DNA of 64,000 nucleotides from Blastocatellia bacterium (GTDB lineage Bacteria; Acidobacteriota; Blastocatellia; RBC074). Of this stretch, positions 11,144 to 49,976 are shown piece after piece. The notes beneath the pieces are model-generated. The model was not told the DNA's origin. It did no database searches and worked only from the letters and a program-made list of their open reading frames with translations. Numbering within the stretch: the stretch's first letter is position 1; the number at the start of each line of letters is the position of its first letter. The position numbers and the translations under genes are program-made. The DNA is taken from NCBI GenBank assembly GCA_046331565.1, contig JAXLQP010000001.1, positions 2,158,347 to 2,222,346 of the forward strand, in the 5' to 3' direction.

Positions 11144-11218
11144 GACAGGATTAACAGGATAAACAGGATATTTCTGGTTGAAACAGTTCTGTTTATCCTG
11201 TCTTTCCTGTAAATCCTG
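11144..11218. repeat. Hairpin whose arms are 3 tandem 9-bp units (AACAGGATA x3 / TATCCTGTn x3).
   Basis: acaggattaacaggataaacaggata ... tatcctgtctttcctgtaaatcctgt. Intergenic between the blaR1-like stop and the repeat-protein gene. Confidence 0.6.
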
Positions 11219-11280
11219 TCAAAAATCTTCGTGCTTCTTCGTGTGGCTTAGTGGATAAGAAATGTGACTGAATCAGCGGT

Positions 11281-13722
11281 TCATTTCTTCAGCAGGATTT
11301 CGTCAATCCCGCGCATTTTCAGTTCAATCAACTGATTCGCTGAAACGTTTTTGAATCCGGCGGCGCGCATCTTTCTGATGTAATCGCCGGTGACGCCGTG
11401 CATTCGCATTTTGATCAGTTCGTCCACGGTCAGTTTGTCAAAGCCTGCGTCGCGCAGTTCTTTGATCCAGTCTTCAGTGACACCGAACATACTGAGCCTT
11501 GTCAGTTGCTCAGCGGTCAGATTGCTGTACCCGTTGCGGCGCAGGGCTTCCATAAAGGCGGGCGTGACGCCGTGCATGCGCATCTTCGTCAGATCATCAG
11601 CCGACAGGTTGCTGAAACCCGCGCTGCGCATCTCTTTGATGTAATTTTCGGTGACGCCGTGCATACGCAGGCGGGTGATCTGTTCGGCGCTGAGATTGCT
11701 GTAGCCGTTCCTGCGCAGCGTTTCAATGTACTCAGGCGTGACGCCGGACATGCGCATCCGGGCGAGCGATTTCAGCGGCAGGTCGTAACCGGCCTTCTTC
11801 ATTTCGCGGATGTAATCAGGGCTGATGCCTGACATTTTCAGTTGCACCAGGTCGCTGACCGTCAGCTTTTCACCGGTCTGACTGCGCGCTTCTTTGATGA
11901 AATCTTCAGTGACGCCGTGCATTTTCAACTGTACGACTTCCCTGATTTGCAGGTTGTCGTAACCCATCCTGCGCAGCATTTCGATGTATTCGGGCGTGAC
12001 GCCGTACATCTTCAACTGCACAATGTTCTCAGCCGTCAGCGCAGTTGATTCGCCTTTGCCCTGCTGTCCTGATGACTGTGCCAGCCCGTCAGCGAGCGCC
12101 CGCTCCTGAACTTTCCGCATCTCTCTGTCCAGTTTCGTCGCAATCCTGACCTCAATCTTTTCTCTGACCTGTGCGAGTTCCTGCTGCAATTCCTGAGAGA
12201 TCATCTGCGAAGTTGATTCACGCGCAGCGCGCTGCGCCATTGCTGCGATTTCAGCCTGAAGCTTTCCGATTTCGCGCTGAATCCTTTTCACTTCGGCGGC
12301 GCTGATCTTTTCAGCCGCGCCCCTGGCCTGAAGTTCAGCCAGTTCTCTGATCTGATCATTCAGTTCCTGACGCTTCTCATCCAGATCAGCACGCAGTTCT
12401 TCGGCGCGACTCTGCTCATCTGCGATGGCATCAGCAGCTTCATCCTGCGCGGCTTCCAGGTCGCGGCTGTCTGCGGGTTCGGCGGACTGTGCAGGCTGTG
12501 GCGGCTGCGGCGGCTGTGGTTTGTTCCCGGGTTGCGGCGTATCAAGTGGCGCGGCGGATTTCTCTGCTTTCTGCTTCTCCTGCGCTGAAGCATTTGCCCA
12601 GGGCTGCAACGCCGCCAGCGGAATAATGAAGCTGACCACCGCGCAGGTGATCAGCGTCGTGATGCGTCGCGTCATGCGCTGGCGTCTGACAGCCGGATCA
12701 AGAATCGCCCGCACGCGGCTTTCAAGCTGTGAACAGGCCATCCCCACCGCGACCGGCGAAACAGAGCTGACATCACTCATCGCCCGCGCAATGTTCACCA
12801 GATAACCGGCGTAATCAGAAGCCCGTGTACCGACCTCCAGCACGTAATCATCACAGGCCAGTTCGCGTTCGACGCGCAGCCGTCGCGCGCCGATCCAGAC
12901 CAGCGGATTGAACCAGTACAACGCGCACGCCACCTGCGCCAGCAACTGCGTCAGACAATCGCGCCGCCTGATGTGCGCCAGTTCGTGCAGCAGCACAATC
13001 TGACGCCATTCAGCCGACCATTCATCAGCGTCATCAGGCAGCAGCACGACCGGACGCCAGATGCCCCACGTCATCGGCATCGTGACCTGATCGCTTTTGA
13101 GCAGGGGAATGTGCCTGTCCAGATCAAGCTGCATTGCCAGCCGCTTCACGATGGCCGACCAGGCGTAACCGGTCAGCACTTCGGCATCACGCGCAATGGC
13201 CCAGACCCTGATCAGGCTGACGGCCAGCCGCGCCAGCACGATGAATGCGCCCGTCAGCCAGACGAGCAGCACAAGCTGCGGCCACTGCACTGAAGGCGTT
13301 GCATTACTCACCTGTGACGGCGCGGCGCTGGCTGTCGGCGCTTCATCCTTCAGTTCCTGCGCGGAGTTTTCAACCAGTGGCGGATAAGTCAGCCGCTGAT
13401 CTGTCGGATCAGTCGCGCTCAGTTCGGCTACATCCACCGGCGCTGCAATATCTGATGATGCCTGCGCGGTCATCAGTTCAGGCAGCAGCGGCAACTGCCA
13501 GCCCGGCAGCGCCATTGACAGCACGGGCAGCGCGAGCAGACTGATGACGGCCAGCGTCCAGACCAGATGCCGCGTTGCCGCCGCCGCGCGCCGCAGCGTT
13601 ACCACCAGCAGCGCCGTTGCGACCAGAATCAGCGCGCCTTTAAGCGTCACATCCAGCAGCATCTGAAACCTGACAACCGGCAGCGACGACAGCGCAAAGA
13701 AAGCGGGCAGTGTGGTCATCAT
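11281..13722 (-). CDS. BlaR1-type M56 metallopeptidase signal transducer with a non-canonical sensor: coiled coil plus 8.5 tandem 29-aa repeats.
   Basis: TM helices, HEXXH motif HELAHIRRRD, further TM, P/Q-rich linker, E/K/A/Q coiled-coil-like 140 aa, then repeats LTAENIVQLKMYGVTPEYIEMLRRMGYDN ... No PBP/transpeptidase-like sensor. Confidence 0.75.
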   Translation of the reverse strand: MMTTLPAFFALSSLPVVRFQMLLDVTLKGALILVATALLVVTLRRAAAATRHLVWTLAVISLLALPVLSMALPGWQLPLLPELMTAQASSDIAAPVDVAELSATDPTDQRLTYPPLVENSAQELKDEAPTASAAPSQVSNATPSVQWPQLVLLVWLTGAFIVLARLAVSLIRVWAIARDAEVLTGYAWSAIVKRLAMQLDLDRHIPLLKSDQVTMPMTWGIWRPVVLLPDDADEWSAEWRQIVLLHELAHIRRRDCLTQLLAQVACALYWFNPLVWIGARRLRVERELACDDYVLEVGTRASDYAGYLVNIARAMSDVSSVSPVAVGMACSQLESRVRAILDPAVRRQRMTRRITTLITCAVVSFIIPLAALQPWANASAQEKQKAEKSAAPLDTPQPGNKPQPPQPPQPAQSAEPADSRDLEAAQDEAADAIADEQSRAEELRADLDEKRQELNDQIRELAELQARGAAEKISAAEVKRIQREIGKLQAEIAAMAQRAARESTSQMISQELQQELAQVREKIEVRIATKLDREMRKVQERALADGLAQSSGQQGKGESTALTAENIVQLKMYGVTPEYIEMLRRMGYDNLQIREVVQLKMHGVTEDFIKEARSQTGEKLTVSDLVQLKMSGISPDYIREMKKAGYDLPLKSLARMRMSGVTPEYIETLRRNGYSNLSAEQITRLRMHGVTENYIKEMRSAGFSNLSADDLTKMRMHGVTPAFMEALRRNGYSNLTAEQLTRLSMFGVTEDWIKELRDAGFDKLTVDELIKMRMHGVTGDYIRKMRAAGFKNVSANQLIELKMRGIDEILLKK

Positions 13723-18060: not shown

Positions 18061-18166
18061 AAAACCCGGATCACCCGCGTAGTAACGAATTCATTCGTTC
18101 TGCTGCTGAATCAGCGCGATGGCGGAAACAGAACGAATGAATTCGTTACTACGGGATGATCCGGGT
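18061..18166. repeat. Large imperfect palindrome (about 41-bp arms), family F.
   Basis: aaacccggatcacccgcgtagtaacgaattcattcgttctg ... cagaacgaatgaattcgttactacgggatgatccgggttt. The arm is related to the element at 42255-42335. Confidence 0.6.
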
Positions 18167-23463: not shown

Positions 23464-24840
23464 TCAGAGGCCGTATTTTTCGAGGCGGCGATACAGCGCG
23501 CTGCGGCTCAGGCCCAGGGCTTCAGCGGCCCGGCTGACGTTGCCATCGGCGCGAGCGAGAGCTTTTCTGATCAGCAGGCATTCAACTTCTTCAAGGCTCA
23601 GTTCCTCGATGCGCGTGGCGTGATCGCTTTCGCCGCGCAAGCCAAGATCAGTGGCGCGCACCCTGTGGCCGTTCGACATCAGCACGGCGCGCTCGACAGC
23701 GTGTTCAAGTTCGCGCACATTGCCGGGCCAGTGATATTCCCACATTGCCTGTATCGCGGCGGGTTCAAAGCCTTCGATCTTCTGCCGGTAACGATGCGAC
23801 TGCTGGCGCAGAAAGTAAGTGGCGAGCGGCGCAATGTCTTCGCGGCGTTCGCGCAGCGGCGGCAGGTGAATCTCAATCGTATTGAGCCGGAAAAACAGAT
23901 CGCGCCGGAAGTGTCCGGCTTCAACTTCGCCGCGCAGATCGGCATTGGTTGCTGAAATGATGCGCACATCAACGCGGCGCGTCTTTGATGAACCAACGCG
24001 CTCGAATTCGCCTGTTTCCAGCACACGCAGCATTTTCGGCTGCTGTGTGATCGGCACATTGGCGATTTCATCCAGAAACAGCGTGCCGCCATCAGCGAGT
24101 TCAAAACGCCCGACGCGATCAGCCCGCGCATCAGTGAACGCGCCTTTGACGTGGCCAAAGAGTTCGCTTTCAAACACGCCTTCGCTCAGACCGCCGACGT
24201 TGACCGTCACCAGCGGTTTGACGGCGCGTGATGAAGCCGCGTGCAGCGCCCTCGCCACGACGCCCTTGCCGGTGCCGTTTTCACCGGTAATCAGCACATT
24301 GGCATCTGACGGCGCGACGCGCGCAATGACTTCAAGCACGGGCTGCATGGCCGGAGATTCGGCAATCAGCGCGGGGCCGCGACTTTCACGCAGCACTTCA
24401 TTTTCGGCCTGCAATCGCTGTCCGTGCCGCAAAGCGCGGCTCAGTTCAATCTGCGTGCGCAGAATCGTCAGCAGCCGCGCATTTTCCCAGGGCTTCTGAA
24501 TGAAATCGCGCGCGCCGCGCCGCATCGCTTCAACGGCCACATCCACGCTGCCCCACGCCGTCATCACGACAATCGGCAGCGAAGCGTCAAGCTCATTCAT
24601 GCGCGTCATCAGATCCAGCCCTTCGCGGCCTGAGGTCGTGTCGCGGGCATAATTGAGATCAATCAGCGCGACATCAAATTCCTGTCCGGTCAGCAGGCTG
24701 ATGACTGCCGCCGGTGAAGCCGCCGATTCAATCTGCCAGCCTTCGCCCTTGAGCAGCAATCGCAGCGCCTCAAGCACGTCCTGCTGATCATCAGCAATCA
24801 GAATCCTGGGAGTCGTCGAGTTTTGAGAACCTGTTTTCAT
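23464..24840 (-). CDS. Sigma-54-dependent response regulator (NtrC family: REC plus AAA+ plus Fis-HTH).
   Basis: Receiver domain ILIADDQ..D..DLNY; Walker A GENGTGKG; GAFTDA motif; ESELFGH; C-terminal HTH. Confidence 0.85.
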   Translation of the reverse strand: MKTGSQNSTTPRILIADDQQDVLEALRLLLKGEGWQIESAASPAAVISLLTGQEFDVALIDLNYARDTTSGREGLDLMTRMNELDASLPIVVMTAWGSVDVAVEAMRRGARDFIQKPWENARLLTILRTQIELSRALRHGQRLQAENEVLRESRGPALIAESPAMQPVLEVIARVAPSDANVLITGENGTGKGVVARALHAASSRAVKPLVTVNVGGLSEGVFESELFGHVKGAFTDARADRVGRFELADGGTLFLDEIANVPITQQPKMLRVLETGEFERVGSSKTRRVDVRIISATNADLRGEVEAGHFRRDLFFRLNTIEIHLPPLRERREDIAPLATYFLRQQSHRYRQKIEGFEPAAIQAMWEYHWPGNVRELEHAVERAVLMSNGHRVRATDLGLRGESDHATRIEELSLEEVECLLIRKALARADGNVSRAAEALGLSRSALYRRLEKYGL

Positions 24841-24948
24841 TGGAGAAATTCCGGCGCAGTACCGGGAGCGTCAGCGACCTGGCCTCTTCAGCAGGCCGTT
24901 TCCGCCAGCACCAGGTCGCTGACGCTCCCGGTACCGCGCCACCTGTTT

Positions 24949-25620
24949 TTATGCCTGTTCGTTGACGATCCAGCCGTCGCGCAGCCTGATGACGCGGTTG
25001 CCGTAAGCGGCATTCGCTTCCGAGTGCGTCACCTGAATAATCGTCGTCCCCTGCGCGTTCAGCTTTCTGAACAGTTCCATAATTTCCTGTCCCTGAGCGG
25101 TGTGTAAGTTGCCGGTCGGTTCGTCGGCCAGAATCACTTTCGGGCTGGCGATAATGGCCCGCGCCACGCCGACCAGTTGCTGCTGACCGCCCGAAAGCTG
25201 ATTCGGGTAAAGATCCTTTTTCCCCACAATCTGAAACCGGTCGAGAATGTCACCCACGATGGCATCACGCTCGGATTTTTTGTAGTTGCGATAAGAGAGC
25301 GGAATTTCCAGGTTTTCAGCCACCGTCAGATGATCGAGCAGGTGGTAGCTTTGAAAAACAAAGCCGATATTCCGGTTGCGCACTTCGGCGCGATCCTTTG
25401 GTTTGAGTTTGTGAATCGGCTGCTCGAAGAAAGTGTATTCGCCCTGCCACACGTTGTCGTGCATGCCCAGAATGTGCAGCAGCGTTGATTTGCCCGCGCC
25501 CGACGGCCCCATAATCGAAACGAACTCGCCTTCTCTGATTTCAGCGTCAACGCGGCGCAGTACCCAGAATTTATTGACTCCGTGTTCATAGACCTTTTCG
25601 ATGTTGCGAAGTGTAATCAT
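24949..25620 (-). CDS. ABC transporter ATP-binding protein (LolD/MacB-type ATPase).
   Basis: Walker A GPSGAGKST, signature LSGGQQQ, Walker B ILADEPTGNL, H-loop. Confidence 0.8.
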   Translation of the reverse strand: MITLRNIEKVYEHGVNKFWVLRRVDAEIREGEFVSIMGPSGAGKSTLLHILGMHDNVWQGEYTFFEQPIHKLKPKDRAEVRNRNIGFVFQSYHLLDHLTVAENLEIPLSYRNYKKSERDAIVGDILDRFQIVGKKDLYPNQLSGGQQQLVGVARAIIASPKVILADEPTGNLHTAQGQEIMELFRKLNAQGTTIIQVTHSEANAAYGNRVIRLRDGWIVNEQA

Positions 25621-25641: not shown

Positions 25642-26589
25642 TCAGTGCTGTGGTAAATGATCGTCGGGCCGTCCCGCCAGCCAGTGCATGACGTTGAGCA
25701 GGAACTGATGGTTCTGTTTTGCTGCGGGCGCATTCATCCCCATCGGCTGACGCTGCGGCCCGGCAAGCTGCGCCGAAAACATCGCGGCCTCGCCAAACAC
25801 GGCGACGCGGCCTTTACCGGCATTCAGCGTGGCACCCTGCAACCAGCCTTTGAGCGGCACGCGCTTCGTCTGTTCAGTGAACTGCCACGCTACTTCAGGT
25901 TCCAGCGAAACGAACGAATCGCTGAGCGTCATCAGCGGCCTCGCTGCGCCTTCGACGCGAAAGGCCGAACCGGTGAAGGATGCAACAGTATCAATTTTTT
26001 CAGCGGCGACGCTGCCATTGGTAATCGGATGATCGGCGAGCGAACCGTCAGCGCGGCGAAAGATATCAGGGCCGCCCTGCGTTTTGTCGCTGCGCGCAAA
26101 ACCATTGCTGAATCTGATGCCGAAAGCCGAAGCCAGTTTATCGGCTGCGCCGGGAAAGGGCATATGATCAACGATCAGCAGCAGCGCGCCGCCGCTTTGC
26201 ACCCATTCGCGCACGGCGGCAACTTCATCGTCAGTGAAGGCCGATGGTGTGGGCAGCGACCAGTCGCCTTTGCCGTTGCGTTCATTGAGCGCATTGGCAA
26301 TCACCAGAATTTTCGCCTCGCGCAGCGAATCTCTGGAAAATTTCGCGGCTGAACCTTTGACCACAAAACCATCGCGCCTGAGCAGTTCGGCAAAAGGCAG
26401 ATAACGCCCGCTCGCCGTGTGAAAGTTGAAATGCGCCTCATCAATCAGCACCAGCGGCCCTTTGCCCTGACCATAAGCCGGGCGCTCAATCGGCGGGCGA
26501 TAATCAGTATCAGCGACCTGCTGCGCCATCACAAATGCACACAGCGAGAGCAGCGCCGCAACTGTCACAAGGATTTTCCGGTGTGTCAT
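25642..26589 (-). CDS. Secreted DUF4350-like protein (ABC-system accessory, GldG-like).
   Basis: Signal peptide [24 protein letters not shown]. Immediately upstream of the ABC ATPase in the same orientation. Family assignment from memory, weak. Confidence 0.4.
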
Positions 26590-26651
26590 CAACAGTTCTC
26601 CTGACGATTTCATTCTGAACGTTCGCACCACAGCGATTCGCCGCCTGACAG

Positions 26652-26675
26652 CCTGTTCCAACCCGTGTGCCACGA
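26652..26675 (-). promoter_or_regulatory. Possible sigma-54 promoter (TGGCAC-N5-TTGG on the minus strand) upstream of the DUF4350-ABC-RR-HK gene string.
   Basis: Minus strand reads tcgTGGCACacgggTTGGAacagg about 60 nt upstream of the start codon. The -12 element has GG instead of the consensus GC. Confidence 0.2.
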
Positions 26676-26858
26676 CATTAACTGCGGCTAAATCCAATGC
26701 CTGAGTTGAGTCTGTTCACGATTATAAAACCCGCCGCCGAAAAAGTGTCCGTTTTTGGGATGACTGAATCCCGGAAACGAGAGTCACACCCGGATGTTCG
26801 CCAATTCAAAGCTCCCGACACAAACCAACCGGCTGATTATCCGGCCTCACTGTCTGCG

Positions 26859-26992
26859 GAGCGGGCGACAGAACAGGCATTTCCAGCGCAAAGAGACAAA
26901 GAGACACAGACAAACTGTCAGCCCTTTTGCGTTCTTTGTTTCTTTGCACTGGAGATGTCTCCGGTGACCGGGTCATTGAATGCTTATCACTA
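26859..26992. repeat. MITE-like element, family C, copy 1 (intergenic).
   Basis: gagcgggcgacagaacaggcatttccagcgcaaagagacaaagagaca...ttttgcgttctttgtttctttgcactgg...cattgaatgct. Second copy at 47667-47800. Track ORF 26697..27305(+) is an artifact spanning it. Confidence 0.65.
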
Positions 26993-27237
26993 CAAGACGA
27001 ATACCTCACAGTCCGCAGTTTTGAATCACGACCTGATTTATTTTCGCGCTGATTTCGGTTCGGTTCGTTGGCGTACTGACTGGCAGGCCGCCCTCAGGGC
27101 AGCATGCGCCCAACACGAGGAACAAAGGAAAGCACCAGGCTTAAGGCTGGACGACCTGACGACCTTCTGTGCAGTCCAGCCAGTCCGACCCGCCTGCGGT
27201 GCTTTCCTTTTGATTTATTCGCCGGAGGTTTTCATTT

Positions 27238-28161
27238 ATGACCGAAGTGCAGGATCAGCCGAAACCACCCTTCCCCGCGCAGCATCAGCGCAAGCCGGGC
27301 CTTGAATCCGAACTTGACCCGCGTCCGCATTACGAGGCTCCCGAATACAAAGGTTCGGGAAAATTGCAGGGCCGGGTGGCGCTGATTACGGGCGGCGATT
27401 CGGGCATTGGCCGCGCCGTCGCCGTGCTGTTTGCGCGCGAGGGCGCAGATGTGGCGATTATTTATTACTCCGGTGAACAGCGCGATTATTACGCCGATGC
27501 CGATGGCGCGCCGCTGCCGCCTGAACAGAGCGACGCCGAAGAGACACGCAATGCCATTGAGATTGAAGGCCGCCGCGCCCTGCTGCTGCCCGGTGATGTG
27601 AGCGATCCGGCCTTCTGCACTGAAGCGGTCGAACGGACGGTCGGTGAATTCGGGAAACTTGATATTCTGGTCAACAACGCGGCCTTTCAGCAGCATCAGC
27701 CGGGCCTCGAAGCGTTGTCGGATGAACAGTGGGATCACACATTCAAAACGAACATCTACGGTTACTTTCATCTGTGCAAAGCCGCGCTGCCGCACCTTGC
27801 GCCGGGCAGCGCCATCATCAACACCAGTTCCACCACCGGACTTGAAGGCAGCAGCCACCTGCTCGATTATTCGGCCACCAAAGGCGCAATCAACGCCTTC
27901 ACCAAATCGCTGGCGCAGAACCTGACCGAAAAAGGCATCCGCGTTAATGCCGTCGCGCCTGGCCCGGTGTGGACGCCGCTCAATCCTGCCGATCAGTCGC
28001 CCGACAAAGTGGCGAAATTCGGTCAGGACACGCCGATGAAACGCCCGGCTCAGCCCGAAGAGATTGCTCCGGCCTATGTCTTTTTTGCGTCACCGGCTGA
28101 TTCGAGTTACATCACGGGTGAAGTGCTGACGCTGACCGGAGGCGAAACGATGGCTGCGTGA
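27238..28161 (+). CDS. SDR-family oxidoreductase (YghA/YdaD general-stress type).
   Basis: Rossmann TGGDSGIGRA, NNAAF, catalytic YSATKGAI..K motif. N-terminal extension typical of the YghA family. Confidence 0.8.
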   Translation: MTEVQDQPKPPFPAQHQRKPGLESELDPRPHYEAPEYKGSGKLQGRVALITGGDSGIGRAVAVLFAREGADVAIIYYSGEQRDYYADADGAPLPPEQSDAEETRNAIEIEGRRALLLPGDVSDPAFCTEAVERTVGEFGKLDILVNNAAFQQHQPGLEALSDEQWDHTFKTNIYGYFHLCKAALPHLAPGSAIINTSSTTGLEGSSHLLDYSATKGAINAFTKSLAQNLTEKGIRVNAVAPGPVWTPLNPADQSPDKVAKFGQDTPMKRPAQPEEIAPAYVFFASPADSSYITGEVLTLTGGETMAA

Positions 28162-29203
28162 GCTGCGCGTAAACTTTCAGATACTGCTCAGTCATTCGCT
28201 GCGCTGAAAAATCCGTGCGGGCAGCTTCACGACAGTTTTCCGATTTGAGCGCGCCTGCGGCGGCAATGGCATCGGCCATTTCAATTTCATCACGCACCAG
28301 AAACCCCGTCACACCGTCCTCAATGATTTCAGCCAGCGCGCCTGCTTTGAAGGCAATCACCGGAGTCCCGCAGGCCATCGCTTCCATCGCCACCAGCGAA
28401 CTTGTTTCAGCCACCAGGCTTGGAGCAAGCAGGCAGCGCGCCGCCGTCAGCAGTCGCCGCTTGCGCGCAAATCCGACCGGCCCGATGAAACGCCGCCGAT
28501 GATCAAGACGCGGAACGATCTGTTCGTGAAAGTAAATTTCATGCGCGGCGTAAGGAAAAACCTGCCCCGCCAGCAGCATTGAAACACCGGCACGCGCCGC
28601 TGCCTCAAGCGCCAGGTGAAAACCTTTTTCGGGACAGATGCGACCGAGCGCAAAAACAAGCCCGCGCCTGCTGAGCCTGAGTTGCAGCCGGTCAATCGCC
28701 ACTCCGTTGGGAATCTCCGGCAGCAGTTGCGCGTCAGGCGGGCAGGCGCGCCGCTGCGTGGCCGAAACACAATGCAGAAATGTCTGTGGCCGCGACAGGC
28801 TGAAGAGTTGCGGCGGATACCATGCAGGCGGCAGATGCAGCGTGACCAGAACCGGCGCACCCGGCGGCGGCAGGTAATTGAAACAATCAATGCCGTGCAG
28901 GTGAATCAGATCAACCGCTGATTCAGACAAAGCGCGGGCGATGAGTCCACGCACCGCCTGATAAGTTCGCTCGCGCTCGCCATCACCGATCTGTTCACGC
29001 ACTTCCGGCAGGGCCAGCAATTCACCTGTGACCTGTGAAGCCTCGCTGGCAATCACCAGCGAACGATGCCCGGCCCGCGTCAGCGCTTCATCAAGCAGGC
29101 TGAGTATCTGTTCAGCCCCGCCTGCCGCATCCGCGCTGACCGGAGCGAACGGATAAGCCACACTCAGGATCGTCAGCCTCATCATCAAACACCCGCTGCT
29201 CAC
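28112..29203 (-). CDS. GT4-family (GT-B) glycosyltransferase.
   Basis: C-terminal EAMACGTPVIAFKAGALAEIIEDGVTGFLV (EX7E-type motif). True start probably internal (MRLTIL...). Confidence 0.7.
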   Translation of the reverse strand: MSSGCLMMRLTILSVAYPFAPVSADAAGGAEQILSLLDEALTRAGHRSLVIASEASQVTGELLALPEVREQIGDGERERTYQAVRGLIARALSESAVDLIHLHGIDCFNYLPPPGAPVLVTLHLPPAWYPPQLFSLSRPQTFLHCVSATQRRACPPDAQLLPEIPNGVAIDRLQLRLSRRGLVFALGRICPEKGFHLALEAAARAGVSMLLAGQVFPYAAHEIYFHEQIVPRLDHRRRFIGPVGFARKRRLLTAARCLLAPSLVAETSSLVAMEAMACGTPVIAFKAGALAEIIEDGVTGFLVRDEIEMADAIAAAGALKSENCREAARTDFSAQRMTEQYLKVYAQLTQPSFRLRSASALHP

Positions 29204-29204
29204 A

Positions 29205-29340
29205 TTGCAGAATCATCTCTCTTTCTCCTTCCATCTCTTCTTTCTCTTCTCTGTGACTCTGCGCCTGCGGCGTGAAACTTATTCTCACGCAGAGGCGCAG
29301 AGTCACAGAGAAGAGAGAGAAAAAGAGAGTCAGTGATTTG
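29205..29340. repeat. CT-rich/AG-rich mirror hairpin containing a family-E core.
   Basis: ctcttctctgtgactctgcgcctgcg - gcgtgaaacttattctcacgc - cgcagaggcgcagagtcacagagaagag. Nested hairpins between the PIG-L and GT4 genes. Confidence 0.55.
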
Positions 29341-29363
29341 TGTCCTGGTTCTGCTGCGTGAAT

Positions 29364-30170
29364 TTATCTTTCTGCGATGTCCAGTTCTCTCATTGCTGAT
29401 GCCGCCTGTTTGCGCCACTGAGCGCCGTTCGTGCCCCAGTTGAACTGCTCATAAAACAGCCGTCCTTCATGCGGCGGCTGCGTGTAATCGTAAGCCGGAG
29501 CGGCGCGGAATTTTTCAAAACTCGTCGGAAACACGCGCAGCATTTCGCGCTGCGTGGTGAAGCAGTCAATCATCTGCTGCTTCAGATCGCGCTGCGCTGC
29601 TGATAACGTCAGCGTCAGTTCGCGGCTGTCCTGACGCGCCAGAAATTCGCCCGTGATCATTCTGCCTGCGCTATTGTGATACGAGGTCATCTCAACAACT
29701 GTCGGCACATTCGCCTGCTGCTGTCGCAGCAAATGACACGCCGCCGCCACGGCAAACGAAGTGGCATCGTGATCGGGATGACCGCCTTCGTAAGGATGCG
29801 TCAGCACGACGCGGGGCCGGTATTCAGCAAGCAGCCTGGCGATTTCACGCGCCGCTGAAACCAGATTGAATGTGGCTTCCTGGTCAATAATTCCGAGTTG
29901 TCGCGTCTGTGCGGCGGTGATGCCTGCCAGGGCCAGCGCACATTGCAGTTCAGCGCAGCGCGCTTCAGCGTATGCTTTTCTGGTATCAAATCCGGCAGCC
30001 CGTGCATCGCTCGGATTGCGCGGCGAACCGTCGGTCACGTGAATGATGACAGCCTCTCGCAACCGTGTGAGTTGTCCGCCGACTCCGATGGTTTCATCAT
30101 CAGGATGCGCCACAATCACGGCAGTCGCAGGCGGGAAGCAGGGCAGCCATTCAGCTTCATCAACTTTCAT
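29364..30170 (-). CDS. PIG-L / LmbE-family N-acetylglucosaminyl deacetylase.
   Basis: AHPDDETIG zinc-binding motif; HPDH. Confidence 0.7.
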   Translation of the reverse strand: MKVDEAEWLPCFPPATAVIVAHPDDETIGVGGQLTRLREAVIIHVTDGSPRNPSDARAAGFDTRKAYAEARCAELQCALALAGITAAQTRQLGIIDQEATFNLVSAAREIARLLAEYRPRVVLTHPYEGGHPDHDATSFAVAAACHLLRQQQANVPTVVEMTSYHNSAGRMITGEFLARQDSRELTLTLSAAQRDLKQQMIDCFTTQREMLRVFPTSFEKFRAAPAYDYTQPPHEGRLFYEQFNWGTNGAQWRKQAASAMRELDIAER

Positions 30171-30876: not shown

Positions 30877-30908
30877 GCCGGATCAGATTTCAGATCAGTA
30901 TCCAGGAA

Positions 30909-31026
30909 GTGTTGCGCGATTTGCCAGAATCGCGCGTCATCCGTTATTGGCCCATTGCGTGAACTGCGCGATTCTGGCAAATCGCGCAACACTCCAGCCG
31001 CGCGACTGCGGGCAAATCGCGCAACA
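30909..31026. repeat. MITE family A, copy 2, with an extra partial right arm.
   Basis: Full element 30909-30992, then a duplicated half-site gcaaatcgcgcaacac at 31011-31026. Track ORF 30681..31160(-) is partly artifact. Confidence 0.7.
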
Positions 31027-31080
31027 CTTCTGACAGATCGCCGGACAGTTCCCTGAAATTCCTGGTCTTTGCCGTGTCGG

Positions 31081-31263
31081 TCAGTGCCGCGCGGTCTGAG
31101 TCTGTTTTGTGGCGGTCGCGCAATCGGCGTGGCCGCAGCCACAGGTCGTGCGGGTGTCAATATTGTCGTTGGCGTGCATGCAATGATCGCTGCAATAGGG
31201 CTGGCCTGACCGTGCCGGACAATTGCAGTTCGGATTGGCGCATTTGTCAGTCATCTCTGCCAT
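31081..31263 (-). CDS. smtA: Bacterial SmtA-type metallothionein.
   Basis: KCANPNCNCP....YCSDHC....CGCGHADC. The Cys/His spacing parallels cyanobacterial SmtA (KCACEPCLC...YCSEAC..GCGHTGC). Confidence 0.55.
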   Translation of the reverse strand: MAEMTDKCANPNCNCPARSGQPYCSDHCMHANDNIDTRTTCGCGHADCATATKQTQTARH

Positions 31264-31452
31264 CTTGATTCCTCCGAAAGTAATTCACGAAACCACACGA
31301 AAAGACACGGGACTCAGCGGCCACGCCGTCCGTGTCAGTTCGTCTGACTTCGTGAATGGTTCAAGCCTGATTCATGCAGGCATTAACCCGCCCCGACTTG
31401 ATAGGTTAATGCCTGCATCTCTTTCCTCACCAACCTCACTGAGGAAAGAAGC

Positions 31453-31998
31453 TCAGCGCGAAGCCAGATCGCCGCCCAGTTGTTTCCATTCGCGTTCGAT
31501 CTGTTCGGCTTCGGCAGCGGTGCGCGGTGTCACGCTGATCAGAATGCCGCCGCCTTTGATGCCTTCTTCATAGATTCGCGCGTGTTCTTCGGGAATGCCT
31601 GAACCAACCAGCGCACCAATCAGTCCGCCGGCAATCCCGCCCGCTCCGGCCCCGGCCAGTCCGGCGGCCAGCGGCCCGGCTACAACAATGCCCAGACCAG
31701 GCAAAGCAATAAAAGTTCCGATTGCGGCGAGCGCGCCCAGCAGTCCGCCAACGACCACACCGATGCCGCCGCCGACTCCCGCGCCTTCGAGCGCCTTGTT
31801 GCCCAGTTCGGTGGTGTTGGCGTTCGTGTCGCCGAAATAACGATTGCGCGTTTCATCAGACATCACGACGCTGGTGTCTTCGCGGCTGTAGCCCAGATCC
31901 ATCAGATAGTCATAGGCTCGTTCGGCGGCTGATTTGTCTCTGAACAGACCGCTGACGGTCGGCTGCCTGGCGGTTGAGGTGCTGCTGTTGTCTGCCAT
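31453..31998 (-). CDS. General-stress-protein-like (YflT/17M-type N-domain) protein with a glycine-zipper membrane segment.
   Basis: N-terminal AAERAYDYLMDLGYSREDTSVV; central GxxxG-rich hydrophobic segment; C-terminal IYEEGIKGGGILISV. Confidence 0.45.
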   Translation of the reverse strand: MADNSSTSTARQPTVSGLFRDKSAAERAYDYLMDLGYSREDTSVVMSDETRNRYFGDTNANTTELGNKALEGAGVGGGIGVVVGGLLGALAAIGTFIALPGLGIVVAGPLAAGLAGAGAGGIAGGLIGALVGSGIPEEHARIYEEGIKGGGILISVTPRTAAEAEQIEREWKQLGGDLASR

Positions 31999-32294
31999 TA
32001 TTTACTGCTCCTGCTGAGAGTTGATTAACTACGATCCGGGCGCGGGTTCACATCAAACCCGCCGGACGTGATTCAGTCGAAGTGCAAGCCTCATACCATC
32101 CCGCCCCCTCTGACGCCGCCGCGCTACCGCATTACTCCGTAACGCCTCAGAGTCACACCCGCGCACGGTCGTCCAACGCCTGTTCTGAATAAGAACAGCC
32201 ATTCGTCAAAGCAGCCTCTGAAACATTCTCACAGATGCCATTCATTCCAGCACGACAGTTGCTCACCAGTCGCACCGTCTGTCTGAAACAAGCA

Positions 32295-32378
32295 GTGTTG
32301 CGCGATTTGCCAGAACCGCGCGGATTACGCAATGAGCCGATGACGGATGCCGCGCGATTCTGGCAAATAGCGCAACAC
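32295..32378. repeat. MITE family A, copy 3.
   Basis: gtgttgcgcgatttgccagaaccgcgcgg ... cgcgcgattctggcaaatagcgcaacac. Track ORF 32235..32426(+) is an artifact. Confidence 0.7.
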
Positions 32379-32535
32379 ACGTTGGTTCAGGTTACTGATT
32401 TGAAATCTGATCCGGGTCGGGTGTGATGAAGAAACTCGAACTCGTAATCACGAATGTCTTCGCCATCGGCGGGGTGCGTCTGGTTTCGCTCCGGCGCCCG
32501 GCTTAAGGCTGCCGGATGACAGAAGGAGAACAAAC

Positions 32536-42236: not shown

Positions 42237-42254
42237 CTCAAACAACAGGCCGCT

Positions 42255-42335
42255 CCCTGTAGTCAACAATTTATTCGTTCTGATTTCCGTCATCGCGCCG
42301 GTTCAGACCTGAACGAATAAATTTACGGCTACGGG
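42255..42335. repeat. Palindromic element related to family F (18061-18166).
   Basis: ccctgtagtcaacaatttattcgttctg ... gaacgaataaatttacggctacggg. The loop carries the ttccgtcatc motif seen in family D. Confidence 0.5.
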
Positions 42336-42380
42336 CAGCGGCCTGGCTCATTATTTGATGCTTTTTTCAGGCAGTGACTG

Positions 42381-44330: not shown

Positions 44331-47300
44331 ATGCAGAAGCTGGCCGAAATCTGTGTTCGCCGTCCGGTTTTCGCCACAATGCTGATTCTGGCGCTGACTG
44401 TGGTCGGCGTCTTCTCTTTCTTCACCCTCGGCGTTGATCTTTTTCCGCGCGTTGATTTCCCGACCATCACTGTTTCCGTCCTCAATCCCGGCGCTTCGCC
44501 GCAGGAAATCGAAACCGAAATTACCGACAAGGTTGAAGCCTCGGTCAACACCATCAGCGGCATTGATGAATTGCGCTCGACCTCGATTGAAGGCGTCTCG
44601 CAGGTCTTTATCACGTTCGTTCTCGAAAAGGATGCCGATGTGGCCGCGCAGGAAGTGCGCGACAAAGTTAACCTGATTCTCGACGAACTGCCCGAAACCG
44701 CCGAAACGCCGATCATTCAGAAACTCGACACCGAGGCTGCTCCGGTGCTGCGCATCGTGATTTCGGCCCCGCGCCCGTTGCGCGAAGTCAATGACATTGC
44801 CGACAAACAGATTGGTGAAAAGCTTGAAAGCATCAGCGGCGTCGGTCAGGTGCAGATCATCGGCGGCAGCGAACGCGAAATTCAGATTCAGGTTGATCCT
44901 GACCGGATGCGCGCCTTCAACATCACCATCAACGATGTCGTCAATGCCGTCCGCGCGCAGAACATCGAAGTGCCGGGCGGGCGCATTGATCAGGGCACAC
45001 GCGAGCTGACGGTGCGCACGCTCGGACGCATCCGCGACATCGAAGGCTTCAATAACCTGGCCATCGCCAATAAAAATGGGTTTGCCGTCAAGGTGCGCGA
45101 CATTGGCCAGGCCGTTGACACCGCCGCTGAACAGCGCACTGCCGCGCTTTTTGACGGCAAACCGGCGGTCAGCATTCTGGTGTCAAAACAATCAGGCCAG
45201 AACACCGTCGCCGTTGCCGATGCAATCAGAGAAAGGCTGAATGAAATCAAACCGACGCTGCCGCCCGATGTGCATTACGAAATCGCGGGCGATCAGTCCG
45301 TCTACATTCGCGCCGCTGTCGAATCAATCGAAACGCACCTGATCGAAGGCAGCATTCTCGCTTCAATCGTCGTCTTTCTCTTTCTCTGGAACTTTCGCTC
45401 GACGCTGATTTCAGCCATCGCCATTCCGACTTCAATCATTTCAACCTTCGGCCTGATGGCGGCGATGGGTTACACGCTCAATCAGATCACGATGCTTGCG
45501 CTGACGCTGATGGTCGGCATCGTGATTGATGATGCGATTGTGGTGCTTGAGAACATTTATCGTTATATCGAAGAGAAAGGCCTGTCGCCGTTTCAGGCCG
45601 CCATCGAAGGCACGCGCGAAATCGGCCTTGCCGTCATGGCCACGACGCTTTCACTGCTCGCCGTCTTTCTGCCGGTCGGATTTATGGGCGGCATCGTCGG
45701 GCGGTTTATGTCTTCGTTCGGCCTGACGGCTTCGTTTGCAATTGCGGTTTCGCTGCTCGTTTCATTCACGCTGACGCCGATGCTGTCAGCCAGACTCATC
45801 AAACGCCGCGATCCTGAAACAGCCGCAGGCGGCAGCGAAGGCGCGCCCGAACGCACGCCGGGGCCGGAACCGAGCGCGCACGAAACCGTCGCGCAGATGC
45901 CGCCAGCACCCGCGCACGAACCGGCACACGCTTCAAAGGAAGGCCGCATTTACCGCCGCATTGATCGCAACTACACGCGCCTGCTTGAGTGGTCAATGGA
46001 ACATCGCAAGGTGATTGTCGCCCTGAGCGCGCTGACAATCATCAGCATCGTGCCGCTCTTTATGCTGATCGGCAAAAACTTTCTGCCCGTTGATGACCAG
46101 TCACAATTTGAAATCACTGTGCGCGCCGCTGAAGGCACGACATTGCCCGCGACACTGACCATCTTTCAGCGCATTGCCACTGAAGTGCGCAAACTGCCCG
46201 GCGTGACCGACACGCTGACAACTGTTGGCGGCGGTCAGCAGTCGCCGGTCAACAGCGGTTCGATTTACGTCAAACTCGCGCCCATCGAAGACCGCGAACT
46301 GTCGCAGCAGGAACTGATGCTGCGCGCGCGTGAACTGCTGAAAAAATTTCCATCAGAACTGCGCACCAGCGTGCAGCAGGTCGCAGGCATTTCAGGGGGC
46401 GGCTTTCGCAACGCCGATATTCAGTATCTCATCGGCGGCCCCGACATTCAGAAACTGACGCAGTATGCCGACACTCTGCGCCAGAAGATGCAGACCATTC
46501 CCAACGTGGTTGACGTGGACACATCAGTAGTCACGGGCAAGCCCGAACTGCGCGTGGTAATTGACCGGCAGCGCGCCGCTGATCTGGGCGTGCGGGTGGC
46601 CGACATTGCGCAGGCGCTGAACACGCTGATCGCCGGTCAGCGCGTCGGCACATTCAATGTCGGAAAGGATGATTACGACGTGCGCGTGCGCGCTGCTGGT
46701 GAATTTCGCAAAAGCGTCGAAGACCTCAAACGCATGACCGTTGCATCAAATCGCGGCGGCCAGATCACGCTTGATAACGTCGTGCACATCGAACCCGGAA
46801 CCGGCCCGTCCTCAATTGACCGGCTCAACCGTCAGCGACAGGTCACCATCACCGCCAACGTCACGCCCGGCGGTTCGCAATCGGAGGTGATTCAGCGTAT
46901 GAACGAATTTGTCAGTCAGATGAAACTCGACCCCGGATATACAACGGGCCTCGCCGGAAGATCGAAGGAACTGGGCCGCGCCGGTTATTACTTCGTTCTC
47001 GCCTTCGCGCTGTCATTCATCTTTATGTACATGGTGCTGGCCGCGCAGTTTGAATCGTTCATTCATCCGATCACGATTCTGCTGACGCTGCCGCTGGCGA
47101 TTCCCTTCGGCATCATCTCGCTGCTGATTTTCGGGCAGACGGTCAACATCTTTTCCGGCCTCGGCCTGCTGCTGCTGTTTGGCATCGTCAAGAAGAATGC
47201 GATTTTGCAGATAGATCACACCAACGGTTTGCGCGCGAAGGGACTGGAACGCCACGCCGCGATCATTCAGGCCAACCGCGACCGCCTGCGACCGATTCTG

Positions 47301-47591
47301 ATGACGACGATTGCGCTGGTGGCAGGCATGCTGCCGCTCGTCATTTCAAGCGGCCCCGGTTCAGGCACCAATCGTTCAATCGGAGTGCTGGTCGTTGGCG
47401 GCCAGTCATTGTGCCTGCTGCTCACGCTGCTCGCAGTGCCGGTCTTTTATTCATTGTGGGAGGATTTGCTTGAACTGCCGGTGTGGCGTTATCTCGGTCA
47501 TCGTTACACCCGCATCAAATCAGGCCTGCGCGAACGTGCGGTCGGTTATCTCTCGCCGCTCATCAATTCATTTCGCCGCCGACCGCGACAA
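44331..47591 (+). CDS. Efflux RND transporter permease (AcrB/CzcA superfamily). No stop codon before the next gene in this frame; reads through into the OMF.
   Basis: 12-TM RND architecture with two large periplasmic loops. Canonical N-terminus MQKLAEICVRRPVFATMLILALTVVGV. Confidence 0.8.
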
Positions 47592-49958
47592 ATGAGCATC
47601 ATCATCGGCCTTATTGCATTGATGTCAGCACCGACGATGACAGATGCCGCGCCGCTTGATCCGCGTGAGCGGGCGACAGCACAGACATTTCCAGCGCAAA
47701 GACACAAAGAGACAAAGAAGGTTTTATGCTCTCTTTGCGTTCTTTGTCCCTTTGCGCTGGAAATAAACCCGCTGACTGGTGCATTGAATGCTCGCCATGA
47801 CTTTGCGCTGTCATCCGCGCCGCAGCCTGTCGAACAGCAACAGCAGCAATCTCAGCAGCCGGGCCGTCGTGAACAGAAACCGCCGCGTCCTGGCGAGCAG
47901 CAGCCGTCGCAGCAGGAACAACCGCCCAATTCAAACTCGGCTCCGATTCGCCCGCGCAACGAGGCGCAGCAGAGCGCGCAGCCGCAGACCGGCCCGCAAC
48001 AGCAGCGACAGCAGACGCAGCCTGACACGACCGGCCCGCGCCCCGTCACTCCGCAATCGCCGACCACCACGCAACCCGCGCCTGGCAGCGCAGGCAGTCG
48101 CACAACTCAGCCCGGCACGAATCAGCAGCCTGGCGCGACGCCGCCAGCAGGCGCGCAACCAGGCGTGCCAGCCACGCCGGGTCAGGATGTGGGCATCACG
48201 CCGGGCATCGCTCCGGCACAGTTGCCGCCTCAGCCGCCGGTCGTTGCGCCCGATTACAAAGCGCCGCTGCGCCCGCTGCCTCCGGCTGAACGAGTCGGCG
48301 TTGACGTGCGCGAACACACGCCGCTGAGCCTGGAAGAGGCTGTGATGATGGCGCTCAATAACAACAAGGACATCAACATCTCGCGCATTGACACGCTGCT
48401 CGCCGGATATGATCTGAGCGCAGCGCGCGGCATTTACGATCCGAACATCACTTCTGAAAGTTATTATGAACATCGCGTGACGCCGGTCAGTTCAGTTATC
48501 GGCGGCGGCAGGAATGGTTCAGTCACGCAGAAAGATTTGACCGGCAGCGCAAGACTCGGCGGCTTTACGCCATTCGCCGGTGGCGCTTATCAGCTTGATT
48601 TTTCGTCCACGCGGCTGACCACCAACAATCAGTTCGTTTCGCTCAACCCGCAATTCCCTGCCGCGCTGACGGTGACTTACACACAACCGCTCTGGCGCGG
48701 GCTGCGGTTTGATGACAATCGCCGCCGCATCGAAGTTGCCAAAAAGAATCTGACGCTGACCGACGCTCAGTTCCGGCAGCGCGTGATTGAAATCATCACC
48801 CGCGTCGAGCAGGCTTACTGGGATCTGGTCTTTTCGCTCAGGAATCTTGACGTGCAGATCGAAGCCGTCAAACAGGCGCGGCGACAAAGCGAAAGCAATC
48901 GCCGGATGGTGCAGGAAGGATTGCTGGCGCCGATTGACATTGTGGCCGCTGACACTCAGGTAGCGACTTTCGAGCAGAATGTTTACACCGCGCAGGAATC
49001 AGTCACCCGCGCTGAAAACACGCTCAAGACGCTGCTGCTGGCTGATCGCACGTCGCCGCTCTGGTCGCAGGCCTTGTGGCCGACTACGCCGGTCACGCTG
49101 GAACCACCACGCCTTCAGCCTGGCGAAGCCGTTTCATCGGCGCTGGCGAGTCGGCCTGAATTGCAGCAGTTGCAGGCCTCAGCCGAAATCAACGAAATCA
49201 ATTCGCGTTATTACCGCGATCAGACCAGACCGCAGATTGATCTGGTCGGCACGTACACAAGTTCAGGGCTGGCCGGTTCGCCGGTTGACACCGGCCCTAA
49301 TCCTTTCACCCAGGGACTGGCCGGGCTGCAACAGCGCATCAACGACCTGTCGCGTCTGGCAGGGCTTGATCCGCTGCCGCCGCTGAGTTCAGGCGGAGGC
49401 ACAGTTTCCGACCTGCTCATTGGCGGCTATGGCCAGTCGCTCAGTAACCTGCTGCAACAGAACTATCCGACCACTCGTGTCGGGCTGCGCATCACGCTGC
49501 CGATTTTCAACCGCACGGCTGAAGCACAACTTGGCCGCTCACTGACTGAAGCAACGCGCATCATCAATCAGCGCGAACAGCTCGAAATACTGATCGAAGC
49601 TGAAGTCCGCAATACCATTCAGGCTGTGCGCTCAGCCGAAGCAAAGCTGGCCGCCGCCGCTTCGGCGCGCTCATCAGCCGAACAGCAGTTCGCCAGCGAA
49701 GAGCGACGTTTGCAGGCCGGGTTGTCCACGGTCTTTCTGGTGCTGCAACGTCAGACCGATCTGCTTGCCGCGCGTGGCCGCGAATTGCAGGCGCAGACTG
49801 ATCTGAATAAATCCATCGCTGAACTGCGCCGCGTTACGGGCGTCACGCTGCAATCACATCACATCACTTTGCAGGGTGAGAATCCCGGCAGGGCTACCGG
49901 AGAACGCATTTCAGCCGCACTGCTGCGCCAGCTTCAACTGACCAGCACACGCCGCTGA
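47592..49958 (+). CDS. TolC-like outer membrane factor with signal peptide and a long P/Q-rich linker. A MITE copy is embedded at 47667-47800.
   Basis: MSIIIGLIALMSAPTMTDA signal peptide. OMF repeats from about 48320 (LSLEEAVMMALNNNKDINISRIDTLLAGYDLSAARG..., second repeat ...AELRRVTGV). In frame with the RND gene. Confidence 0.6.
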   Translation: MSIIIGLIALMSAPTMTDAAPLDPRERATAQTFPAQRHKETKKVLCSLCVLCPFALEINPLTGALNARHDFALSSAPQPVEQQQQQSQQPGRREQKPPRPGEQQPSQQEQPPNSNSAPIRPRNEAQQSAQPQTGPQQQRQQTQPDTTGPRPVTPQSPTTTQPAPGSAGSRTTQPGTNQQPGATPPAGAQPGVPATPGQDVGITPGIAPAQLPPQPPVVAPDYKAPLRPLPPAERVGVDVREHTPLSLEEAVMMALNNNKDINISRIDTLLAGYDLSAARGIYDPNITSESYYEHRVTPVSSVIGGGRNGSVTQKDLTGSARLGGFTPFAGGAYQLDFSSTRLTTNNQFVSLNPQFPAALTVTYTQPLWRGLRFDDNRRRIEVAKKNLTLTDAQFRQRVIEIITRVEQAYWDLVFSLRNLDVQIEAVKQARRQSESNRRMVQEGLLAPIDIVAADTQVATFEQNVYTAQESVTRAENTLKTLLLADRTSPLWSQALWPTTPVTLEPPRLQPGEAVSSALASRPELQQLQASAEINEINSRYYRDQTRPQIDLVGTYTSSGLAGSPVDTGPNPFTQGLAGLQQRINDLSRLAGLDPLPPLSSGGGTVSDLLIGGYGQSLSNLLQQNYPTTRVGLRITLPIFNRTAEAQLGRSLTEATRIINQREQLEILIEAEVRNTIQAVRSAEAKLAAAASARSSAEQQFASEERRLQAGLSTVFLVLQRQTDLLAARGRELQAQTDLNKSIAELRRVTGVTLQSHHITLQGENPGRATGERISAALLRQLQLTSTRR
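47667..47800. repeat. MITE family C, copy 2, inside the OMF coding region.
   Basis: Near-identical to 26859-26992. Translated in-frame as RERATAQTFPAQRHKETKKVLCSLCVLCPFALEINPLTGALNARHD. Confidence 0.65.
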
Positions 49959-49976
49959 ATCCCGGAAACGAAAAAG

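Follow-up and report, generated by a model that had tools for sequence, protein, structure and literature searches.

Did the two small stress-type genes that lie between palindromic repeats in the genome of a Blastocatellia bacterium arrive there as a mobile cassette, or were the repeats placed around genes that were already resident? The question arises from a 64-kb stretch of DNA (GenBank assembly GCA_046331565.1, contig JAXLQP010000001.1, positions 2,158,347 to 2,222,346), referred to in its whole length as the window, in which two copies of a palindromic repeat, here called family A, bracket a metallothionein-like (MT-like) and a YflT-like gene. The initial annotation described the repeat as a MITE (miniature inverted-repeat transposable element) and the arrangement as a composite cassette that could be mobilised in trans. 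Our analysis shows that the bracketing copies came to occupy two adjacent spacers independently, next to genes that have long been resident, and that they form no transposable unit. With slightly better than even confidence, we read family A as a lineage-restricted, non-coding repeat of the REP (repetitive extragenic palindromic) doublet kind, similar to REPINs (REP doublets forming hairpins) and BIMEs (bacterial interspersed mosaic elements), which occupies neighbouring intergenic spacers independently.

Six occurrences of a 28-nt arm, GTGTTGCGCGATTTGCCAGAATCGCGCG, were counted in the window with no more than one mismatch, compared with none in shuffled sequence. The six arms form three inverted pairs (1072-1155, 30909-30992 and 32295-32378; chance expectation 0), confirming the three palindromic copies noted in the initial annotation. 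Copy 1 consists of arms 1072-1099 (+) and 1128-1155 (-), which pair perfectly around a 28-nt loop. The arms of copy 2, 30909-30936 (+) and 30965-30992 (-), contain one mismatch, while those of copy 3, 32295-32322 (+) and 32351-32378 (-), contain two. Apart from the start of copy 1, which is 1072 and not 1073, the earlier coordinates were right, and the description of the arms as 28-bp near-perfect inverted repeats is borne out by their 0-2 mismatches. The family A unit is an 84-bp hairpin of 28-nt arms and a 28-nt loop, with a stem of 28-30 bp and a loop of ~28 nt in each copy. The predicted folds are strong, with energies from -52.6 to -69.4 kcal/mol (z = -7.5 to -10.7 against shuffles), copy 1 being the strongest (-69.4 kcal/mol, z = -10.7). 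Copy 3 lies as a whole on the (-) strand, in the orientation opposite to copies 1 and 2, loop included. When the window copies are compared with one another, their arms are 96-100% identical and their loops or spacers 61-79% (17 to 22 of 28 positions). All three are intergenic. One reading frame is open through the element (VLRDLPESRG..ARFWQIAQH), and the conserved pseudo-peptides RDLPESRG..ARFWQIAQH that had been pointed out earlier are real frame artefacts of the arms. No Rfam match was found anywhere in the window.

The repeated unit is more extensive than the hairpin. An additional half-site beside copy 2, first given as 31011-31026, does exist as a seventh half-site of 17 nt at 31011-31027, and it belongs to a full 29-nt variant arm at 30999-31027 (+), CGCGCGACTGCGGGCAAATCGCGCAACAC, which differs by several substitutions and a 1-nt indel. 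This type-2 arm is a singleton in right-arm orientation, located 6 nt past copy 2, and together they form a trimer of the 'dimer + singleton' form. The length of 1.27 kb assigned to the bracketed segment holds from this extra arm to copy 3, whereas the full copies 2 and 3 are 1.30 kb apart. Furthermore, a 'tail' of ~31-42 nt is common to all copies on one side only. It was placed by alignment at 1156-1196 (+) for copy 1, where it is part of a 121-nt direct-repeat family, and at 32379-32420 (+) for copy 3; for copy 2 it lies on the left side, at 30878-30908 (-), beginning 2 nt past the stop codon of the SRPBCC gene. The copy 2 tail, CCGGATCAGATTTCAGATCAGTATCC, matches the reverse complement of the right flank of copy 3 (95.7% over 23 nt), and the shared tail contains CTGAT(C/T)TGAAATCTGATCCGG. 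The orientation of the loop relative to the tail varies among the copies.

The two bracketed genes are both on the (-) strand: the MT-like gene (31081-31263; U0Z53_08385, MFN7945354.1) encodes a 60-aa Cys-rich protein, and the YflT-like gene (31453-31998; U0Z53_08390, MFN7945355.1) encodes a 181-aa YflT-like/glycine-zipper protein. PGAP names both products 'hypothetical protein'. Loci of relatives were reached via homologues of the SRPBCC gene on the left flank, and the order and strands SRPBCC(+)/MT-like(-)/YflT-like(-) are kept in them at the same chromosomal position. In L020 (GCA_035560235.1), the three proteins are 75%, 83% and 83% identical to those of the window, in the same order and on the same strands. 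In L022 (ENA), the corresponding values are 69%, 64% and 73%, and the genes are followed by the same TonB-dependent receptor (81%) and Ysc84 (62%). L026 encodes SRPBCC (77%) and the MT-like protein (44%) as a convergent pair and lacks the YflT-like gene. The closer loci L028, L029 and L030 have 93-95% nucleotide identity to the window; L028 and L029 both run from SRPBCC to the TPR gene, with the MT-like and YflT-like genes in between; L028 reaches from PIG-L to the TonB-dependent receptor. The initial annotation had suggested checking whether the segment is lacking in related strains; its genes are present at the same site in L020, L022 and L028, and the MT-like gene also in L026. The supposed cargo diverges in step with its flanks, which points to vertical inheritance, and the pair has accordingly occupied this site since before these lineages split. 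The synteny refutes a mobile cassette, and the MT-like and YflT-like genes are residents.

Other marks of mobilisation were looked for in the window. No GC anomaly was detected in the bracketed segment, and no direct repeat lies outside 30909 and 32378 (...CCAGGAA on the left, ACGTTGG... on the right) as a duplication around the segment as a whole. At the individual copies, none of the three is abutted by a direct repeat, the flanks being ...TCCGGCA and TCGCGTT (copy 1), ...CCAGGAA and TCCAGCC (copy 2), and ...CAAGCA and ACGTTGG (copy 3); the TCCAG match of copy 2 is displaced by 3 nt and missing from L028. The target-site duplications that the initial annotation had suggested looking for are therefore found neither at any copy nor around the whole segment. 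Among the genes of the 64-kb window there is no transposase or insertion sequence (IS) family, and neither the window nor the relatives' loci compared contain a parent IS with family A termini.

The two bracketing copies differ in their distribution among the relatives. Copy 2 lies between the convergent 3' ends of the SRPBCC and MT-like genes, and an orthologue with identical junctions is found in L028, L029 and L030. In L028 both arms read GTGTGGTGCGACTGGCCGGAATCGCGC, with the same five substitutions on each side, and the 35-nt segment 30994-31028, which holds the type-2 arm, is not present. Between the window and L028, the copy 2 loop gives 18 vs 14 of 28 matches (by eye) and a minus-strand BLAST match, which is suggestive only of a loop flipped in L028 relative to the window. 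At the same site and in the same orientation, L020 carries a 65%-identical, partly decayed element, which scores 23-24 for family A similarity compared with 0-12 for 22 unrelated hairpins. The arms of this element are nearer to the type-2 arm (23/30 positions) than to the canonical arm (20-21/30), and the type-2 and L020 arms have TGCCCGCAGTC in common.

Copy 3, in the divergent spacer between the YflT-like and TPR genes, is missing in L028 and L029, where the alignment breaks at 32295. The region comprises ~220 nt in the window (32295 to ~32513) vs ~17 nt in L028; the alignment is lost on the left at the hairpin's first base (within 5 nt) and on the right ~135 nt past the hairpin. The filler at this site in L028 has a 10-nt match to the tail, which we estimate to be at chance level. 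The difference may be an insertion in the lineage of the window or a deletion in that of L028. L022 and L026 gave no family A match at any position, and the sequence of a further relative, L025 (~90% protein identity), ends inside SRPBCC. Since copy 2 is orthologous in L028 and L020, and copy 3 is absent from L028 despite the presence of the bracketed genes there, the two copies have different histories. A possible relic of copy 3 in L020 (10039-10117), indicated by a covariance model (R1, E ~0.02), was rejected as non-specific, its score being within the null range given by unrelated hairpins. The rebuilt model (R2, filters off) behaved as a generic long-hairpin detector, assigning 25-43 bits to unrelated hairpins vs 21.8 to this candidate. 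With the relic rejected, a bracketing older than the split of the window and L020 lineages is not established.

Copy 1 is located between the convergent DUF6335 (568-954, +) and DUF4383 (1303-1716, -) genes and is flanked by the intrinsic terminators of both, a hairpin with T-run at ~983-1025 (by eye) and another at 1259-1216. In the relatives this site holds unrelated long hairpins in spacers that are not alignable, and neither an empty site nor a target-site duplication can be read from them. The long perfect hairpin of the DUF6335/DUF4383 spacer (window 955-1302; L032 6131-6302; L041 10388-10630) differs from lineage to lineage: the window has family A, L032-type genomes have CCAGTACGCGAGCGTGAGCGAGCGCCC..., and L041 has GGTGTTGGGAGTTCCAGC... 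with a T-run. The L041 hairpin and family A have GTGTTG...CAACAC termini in common.

When the window copies are taken together with L028 and L020, 91% of the stem positions are paired, and 7 of the 29 stem pairs have changed on both sides, a number equalled by none of 500 shuffles. The six canonical arms of the window share the variant GCCAG-AATC, which differs from the form found in the type-2 arm and L020, GCCCGCAGTC, by one indel and several substitutions. Arms of the same genome evolve in concert. Simple independent decay cannot produce this pattern; it requires re-insertion that renews the arms, gene conversion among copies or correction templated inside the palindrome, or selection on both arms as targets of one protein.

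At least four family A loci are present in the genome, three in the window and one outside it on the same 3,285,244-bp contig, ~49 genes downstream of the MT-like gene. The fourth was recognised through P0001 (MFN7945403.1, U0Z53_08630), the only database protein retrieved by a profile of the element's three-frame pseudo-peptides, and holds a diverged copy with a duplicated right arm, as deduced from the protein. The string 'RATAGKSRNT' in P0001 can be derived from the type-2 arm variant only, which places type-2 arms beside doublets at at least two loci. The deposited 124-aa 'hypothetical protein' is itself an artefactual open reading frame (ORF), largely a read-through of an arm cluster composed of a doublet, a duplicated half and a type-2 arm. 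Searches with exact 19-20-mers of the arm returned one match among GTDB species representatives (185,579 genomes), a chance match within a coding region; 16 in JGI metagenomes, chance matches without a partner arm; and none in IMG/VR. At this stringency, family A is restricted to the lineage of the window. Additionally, Logan short-read contigs of the source sample stop within the arms at all three copies, with contig L043 ending 26 nt into the left arm of copy 1 and L002 ending 6 nt into copy 3. The same breaks recur in a second sample, whose strain has SRPBCC and PIG-L ~99% identical to those of the window. Assemblers typically stop at multi-copy repeats, and contig breaks inside the arms are consistent with such a repeat. 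In practical terms, family A hairpins break short-read assemblies and create spurious ORFs.

The REP-doublet reading draws on the anatomy of the arm, which consists of a GTGT foot, a T, a 7-bp palindrome (GCGCGAT/ATCGCGC) around an 8-nt loop, and a final G. Two such arms stand head-to-head around the 28-nt spacer and fold as one long hairpin. REPs are described as having a foot, a stem of 5-13 bp, a loop of 2-20 nt and conserved spacers of 20-100 bp, with trimers in which a singleton stands beside a dimer (PMC3733652), and neither REPs nor REPINs are accompanied by target-site duplications (PMC3733652; PMC6006769). REPINs are inherited vertically and persist for long periods at orthologous sites (bioRxiv 10.1101/2021.07.10.451892). 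REPs further number tens to hundreds of extragenic copies per genome; family A is represented by at least four loci, with contig breaks of a kind consistent with a multi-copy repeat. Family A displays the head-to-head doublet with a conserved spacer that defines a REPIN, as well as vertical inheritance and persistence at an orthologous site, the copy 2 site being occupied in the window, L028 and L020. Its persistent occupancy and restriction to one lineage match REPINs better than typical MITEs.

The window also contains REP doublets with a GTAG foot. A perfect one at 18078-18153 has the arm C-GTAG-T-AACGAAT-TC-ATTCGTT-CTG, a 26-nt spacer and the geometry of family A, and a decayed one at 42246-42345 has its spacer in the opposite orientation. 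Each is nested within another short palindrome (AACCCGGATCA/TGATCCGGGTT and CAGGCCGCTCCC/GGGCAGCGGCCTG). The spacer of the GTAG doublets resembles that of family A over AAT.AGC(G)CGATG.CGGA (15/18 positions), with p ~0.004-0.009 in 4 of 6 cross-family comparisons within the window.

If family A is a REP-type repeat, its copies would be made or renewed in trans by a host enzyme encoded elsewhere in the genome, most likely a single-strand-specific HUH/Y1 transposase of the RAYT (REP-associated tyrosine transposase) type, which would leave no target-site duplication. The copies would settle in intergenic DNA and then stay at the same sites through speciation, and re-insertion, gene conversion among copies or correction templated inside the palindrome may keep their arms in concert. 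Class 3 TnpA-Y1 genes with flanking atypical hairpins have been reported from Acidobacteria (PMC6006769). A broader proposal, which we regard as doubtful, is that this Blastocatellia lineage hosts an undescribed system of the REPIN-RAYT type. Such a system would comprise several hairpin families with a common doublet architecture and spacer and with different feet and arms (GTAG vs GTGT). At orthologous intergenic sites one family would take the place of another, often nested in older palindromes, and a single-strand transposase acting in trans, possibly class 3 TnpA-Y1, would co-evolve with the arms across the genome. If true, this would extend REPIN biology to a new phylum and offer a natural example of a single genome in which feet and arms are switched.

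Several observations weigh against a firm classification of family A with the REPs. REPINs are associated with a single-copy RAYT gene that the same REPs flank; the 64-kb window contains no Y1_Tnp or RAYT gene, and the connection to such an enzyme is an inference only. The foot is GTGT and not GTAG, CGTC or CnGA, and the likeness of the spacer to that of the GTAG doublets is modest. The sub-hairpin of the arm is weakened in L028 (one wobble, one mismatch) and not recognisable in L020, and it may accordingly be incidental. In addition, no clean empty site is available: the difference between copy 3 and L028 is not a clean insertion, and insertion was not directly observed. The evidence at the DNA level consists of three full copies and one arm, with one more locus deduced from a protein. 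Finally, perfect terminal inverted repeats of 28-30 bp would also suit a MITE bound by a transposase.

The last point leads to the alternative that family A is a classical MITE, a deletion derivative of an IS whose 28-30-bp terminal inverted repeats are bound by a DDE transposase encoded elsewhere, with each copy an independent insertion by a cut-and-paste or copy-paste route. This is unlikely in our assessment, although several features suit it: the arms are long and paired with only 0-2 mismatches, the element is small and intergenic with several near-identical copies, both arms change together between genomes as expected if the same protein binds them, and copy 3 differs in presence between close relatives. 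Against these stand the lack of a target-site duplication at any of the three copies and of any IS or transposase in the 64 kb. Moreover, the element is nearly all arm and 28-nt spacer, with a REP-like foot and palindrome that parallel the GTAG doublets of the window, and the occupation of one site across species ~75-83% identical at the protein level suggests a very slow turnover, which is more REPIN-like (bioRxiv 10.1101/2021.07.10.451892). The term MITE given initially is apt in that family A is a short, non-coding, palindromic interspersed repeat of the miniature-mobile-element kind; with neither a target-site duplication nor a parent IS, a REP doublet fits it better. Far less credible is the composite transposon, in which two inverted copies would have delivered the MT-like and YflT-like genes as a 1.3-kb unit able to move again. 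Two copies in inverted orientation do bracket exactly two small stress-type genes, and a motif of 23-26 nt recurs in mirror orientation in the left flank of copy 2 and the right flank of copy 3. However, the same genes occur in the same position, order and orientation in L020, L022, L028 and (MT only) L026, with a divergence in line with that of the flanks; L028 has them without copy 3, and L022 and L026 have no family A match at all. The relatives thus retain the cargo at the site, the unit is flanked by no duplication, its GC content is unremarkable, and the differing histories of copies 2 and 3 speak against their joint acquisition. Together with the absence of a transposase from the window, these results reject mobilisation of a composite cassette in trans.

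It is also conceivable, though in our view rather improbable, that the hairpins are maintained in place by a host function, whether as bidirectional terminators, as stabilisers of mRNA 3' ends or as sites for a nucleoid or regulatory protein of a stress regulon, their pairing being kept by selection. Convergent 3' ends enclose two of the three copies, nothing else in the SRPBCC/MT spacer resembles a terminator, pairing is kept through changes on both sides of the stem, and the copy 2 site is conserved across species. All three copies are near stress-type genes (DUF6335, DUF4383, BON-SRPBCC, SRPBCC, MT-like and YflT-like), and the convergent DUF6335/DUF4383 spacer has some long hairpin in every lineage examined. 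Nevertheless, copy 1 has a canonical intrinsic terminator on either side and is superfluous as a third, copy 3 is in a divergent promoter region and is dispensable in L028, and L022 and L026 do without the element. Near-identical arms at unrelated loci with diverged loops are the signature of a repeat family and not of terminators that evolved independently. Promoter scans returned no promoter-like sites in or near any family A copy. A functional role also overlaps with the REP reading, since REPs themselves affect termination and mRNA stability: they are reported to influence both. As the only strong hairpin between SRPBCC and the MT-like gene, copy 2 may incidentally terminate or stabilise their transcripts. 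An integron attC site was considered and rejected, the ends being GTT...AAC and not AAC...GTT (by eye), with no integrase present.

Family A, accordingly of the REP-doublet or REPIN-like kind or, less likely, a MITE, is new as a family. It contributes a lineage-restricted repeat resembling REP doublets, from a soil phylum that has received little study, and its orthologous copies in three lineages show concerted evolution of the two arms. Should a cognate Y1 transposase be found, the system could be used for studying how REP feet and arms diversify. For annotation, a false lead is removed, as the MT-like and YflT-like genes belong to a stress-gene neighbourhood of Blastocatellia, in which they are conserved and passed on vertically.

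The names of the two bracketed genes call for some caution. The 181-aa protein has a glycine-zipper-like middle region and matches PF11181 (YflT domain) at 24 bits, under the cut-off of 26.2; the label 'YflT-like' is plausible and weak. 'SmtA-like metallothionein' is likewise plausible and unproven for the 60-aa protein, whose match to PF02069 (E = 1.8) reaches 9.3 bits vs a cut-off of 33 and which has no NCBIfam match. A search for metallothioneins in the PDB gave no match with either the single sequence or a profile of its orthologues, while hhalign to SmtA gave a probability of 49%. Seven Cys and one His are invariant across five orthologues. The protein resembles SmtA/BmtA (PF02069) in being small and Cys/His-rich and in retaining the order of the motifs KC..C.C, YCS..C and CGH..C; it differs in falling far under the Pfam threshold and in the missing PDB match, and it carries fewer Cys/His ligand residues than SmtA. 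'Metallothionein-like' is thus a reasonable hypothesis and not a finding. Between the stop codon of the YflT-like gene and the start codon of the MT-like gene lies an inverted repeat (31377-31418, GCAGGCATTAACC-N16-GGTTAATGCCTGC). The window, L020 and L022 share an unchanged 22-nt block, GCAGGCATTAACCCGCCCCGAC, despite neighbouring proteins that are only 64-83% identical, and the repeat is a candidate conserved regulatory or terminator element of the gene pair.

Family A is one of several long-hairpin families in the window, which contains 12 long hairpins with stems of at least 18 bp, compared with none in ten simulated windows. Another family (49974-50084 and 56333-56433) has TTCCGT/ACGGAA-rich arms of 30-34 bp and loops of 41-43 nt, and a similar element was observed in a relative (L031 3905-4006). 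At 51616-51799, a hairpin with a 22-bp stem (51675-51737) lies centrally in a second inverted repeat (arms 51616-51661 and 51754-51799), which suggests the insertion of one hairpin element into another; the segment 51669-51743 matched model R1 by structure only and belongs to a family other than A. A hairpin with a 30-bp stem (24853-24940) separates a sigma-54 response regulator (23464-24840) from an ABC ATPase (24949-25620). In L025 these two genes overlap by 4 nt (4475-4478), and the hairpin-bearing spacer is therefore specific to the lineage of the window. L025 (5147-5972) also lacks, between the ABC ATPase and SRPBCC, the ~4.5 kb of 25642-30170, which encodes an ABC-transporter auxiliary protein, an SDR, a GT1 glycosyltransferase and the PIG-L deacetylase; only the first 25 codons of a 351-aa gene from this block are kept.

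Further features of the window concern its coding regions. In a 1875-aa ORF (44331-49958), an AcrB-type RND pump (residues 6-1042) is joined to an outer-membrane efflux protein domain (1599-1837), an apparent fusion of inner-membrane pump and outer-membrane factor. Periodic repeats of 87 nt (29 codons; at least 12 units, 60-85% identity) extend over 10089-12009, falling in the ORF 10079-11131 and in the C-terminal part of a BlaR1/M56 peptidase-like protein (11281-13722). Finally, a 233-nt direct repeat with 98% identity (5183-5415 and 8390-8622, 3.2 kb apart) flanks the genes for a helix-turn-helix/sigma-70 region 4 protein and a HEAT-repeat protein.

Compared with known systems, the bracketed segment resembles MITE-flanked composites, such as integron mobilisation units and the MITE-bracketed class 1 integrons of Enterobacter and Acinetobacter, in having two miniature inverted-repeat copies around a short gene-carrying segment. 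Those composites carry foreign cargo that relatives lack, and a target-site duplication surrounds the whole unit, whereas here the genes are ancestral and syntenic, no duplication is present, and the flanking copies have different histories. With bacterial MITEs such as Correia (Neisseria), RUP (Streptococcus pneumoniae) and Nezha (cyanobacteria), family A shares a size of ~100 bp, terminal inverted repeats of ~26-30 bp, a non-coding, intergenic and multi-copy character, and the capacity to form DNA or RNA hairpins. Target-site duplications (TA for Correia) and a parent IS family that can be traced characterise those elements; for family A, neither was found. The REP doublets, REPINs and BIMEs of Pseudomonas, E. 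coli and others differ from it in their foot, GTAG or CGTC vs GTGT, and in lacking its one-sided tail of ~31-42 nt; moreover, no RAYT was identified for family A, and its host is a Blastocatellia metagenome-assembled genome, from a phylum for which the literature searched yielded no REPIN family. The resemblance lies in the following: canonical arms made of a short foot and a palindrome stand head-to-head around a conserved spacer of 20-100 bp, singletons occur beside dimers, and the copies are intergenic without target-site duplications. Like REPINs, family A is inherited vertically and persists at orthologous sites, its copies are nearly identical within the genome, as if following a master sequence, and several such families occur in the same genome.

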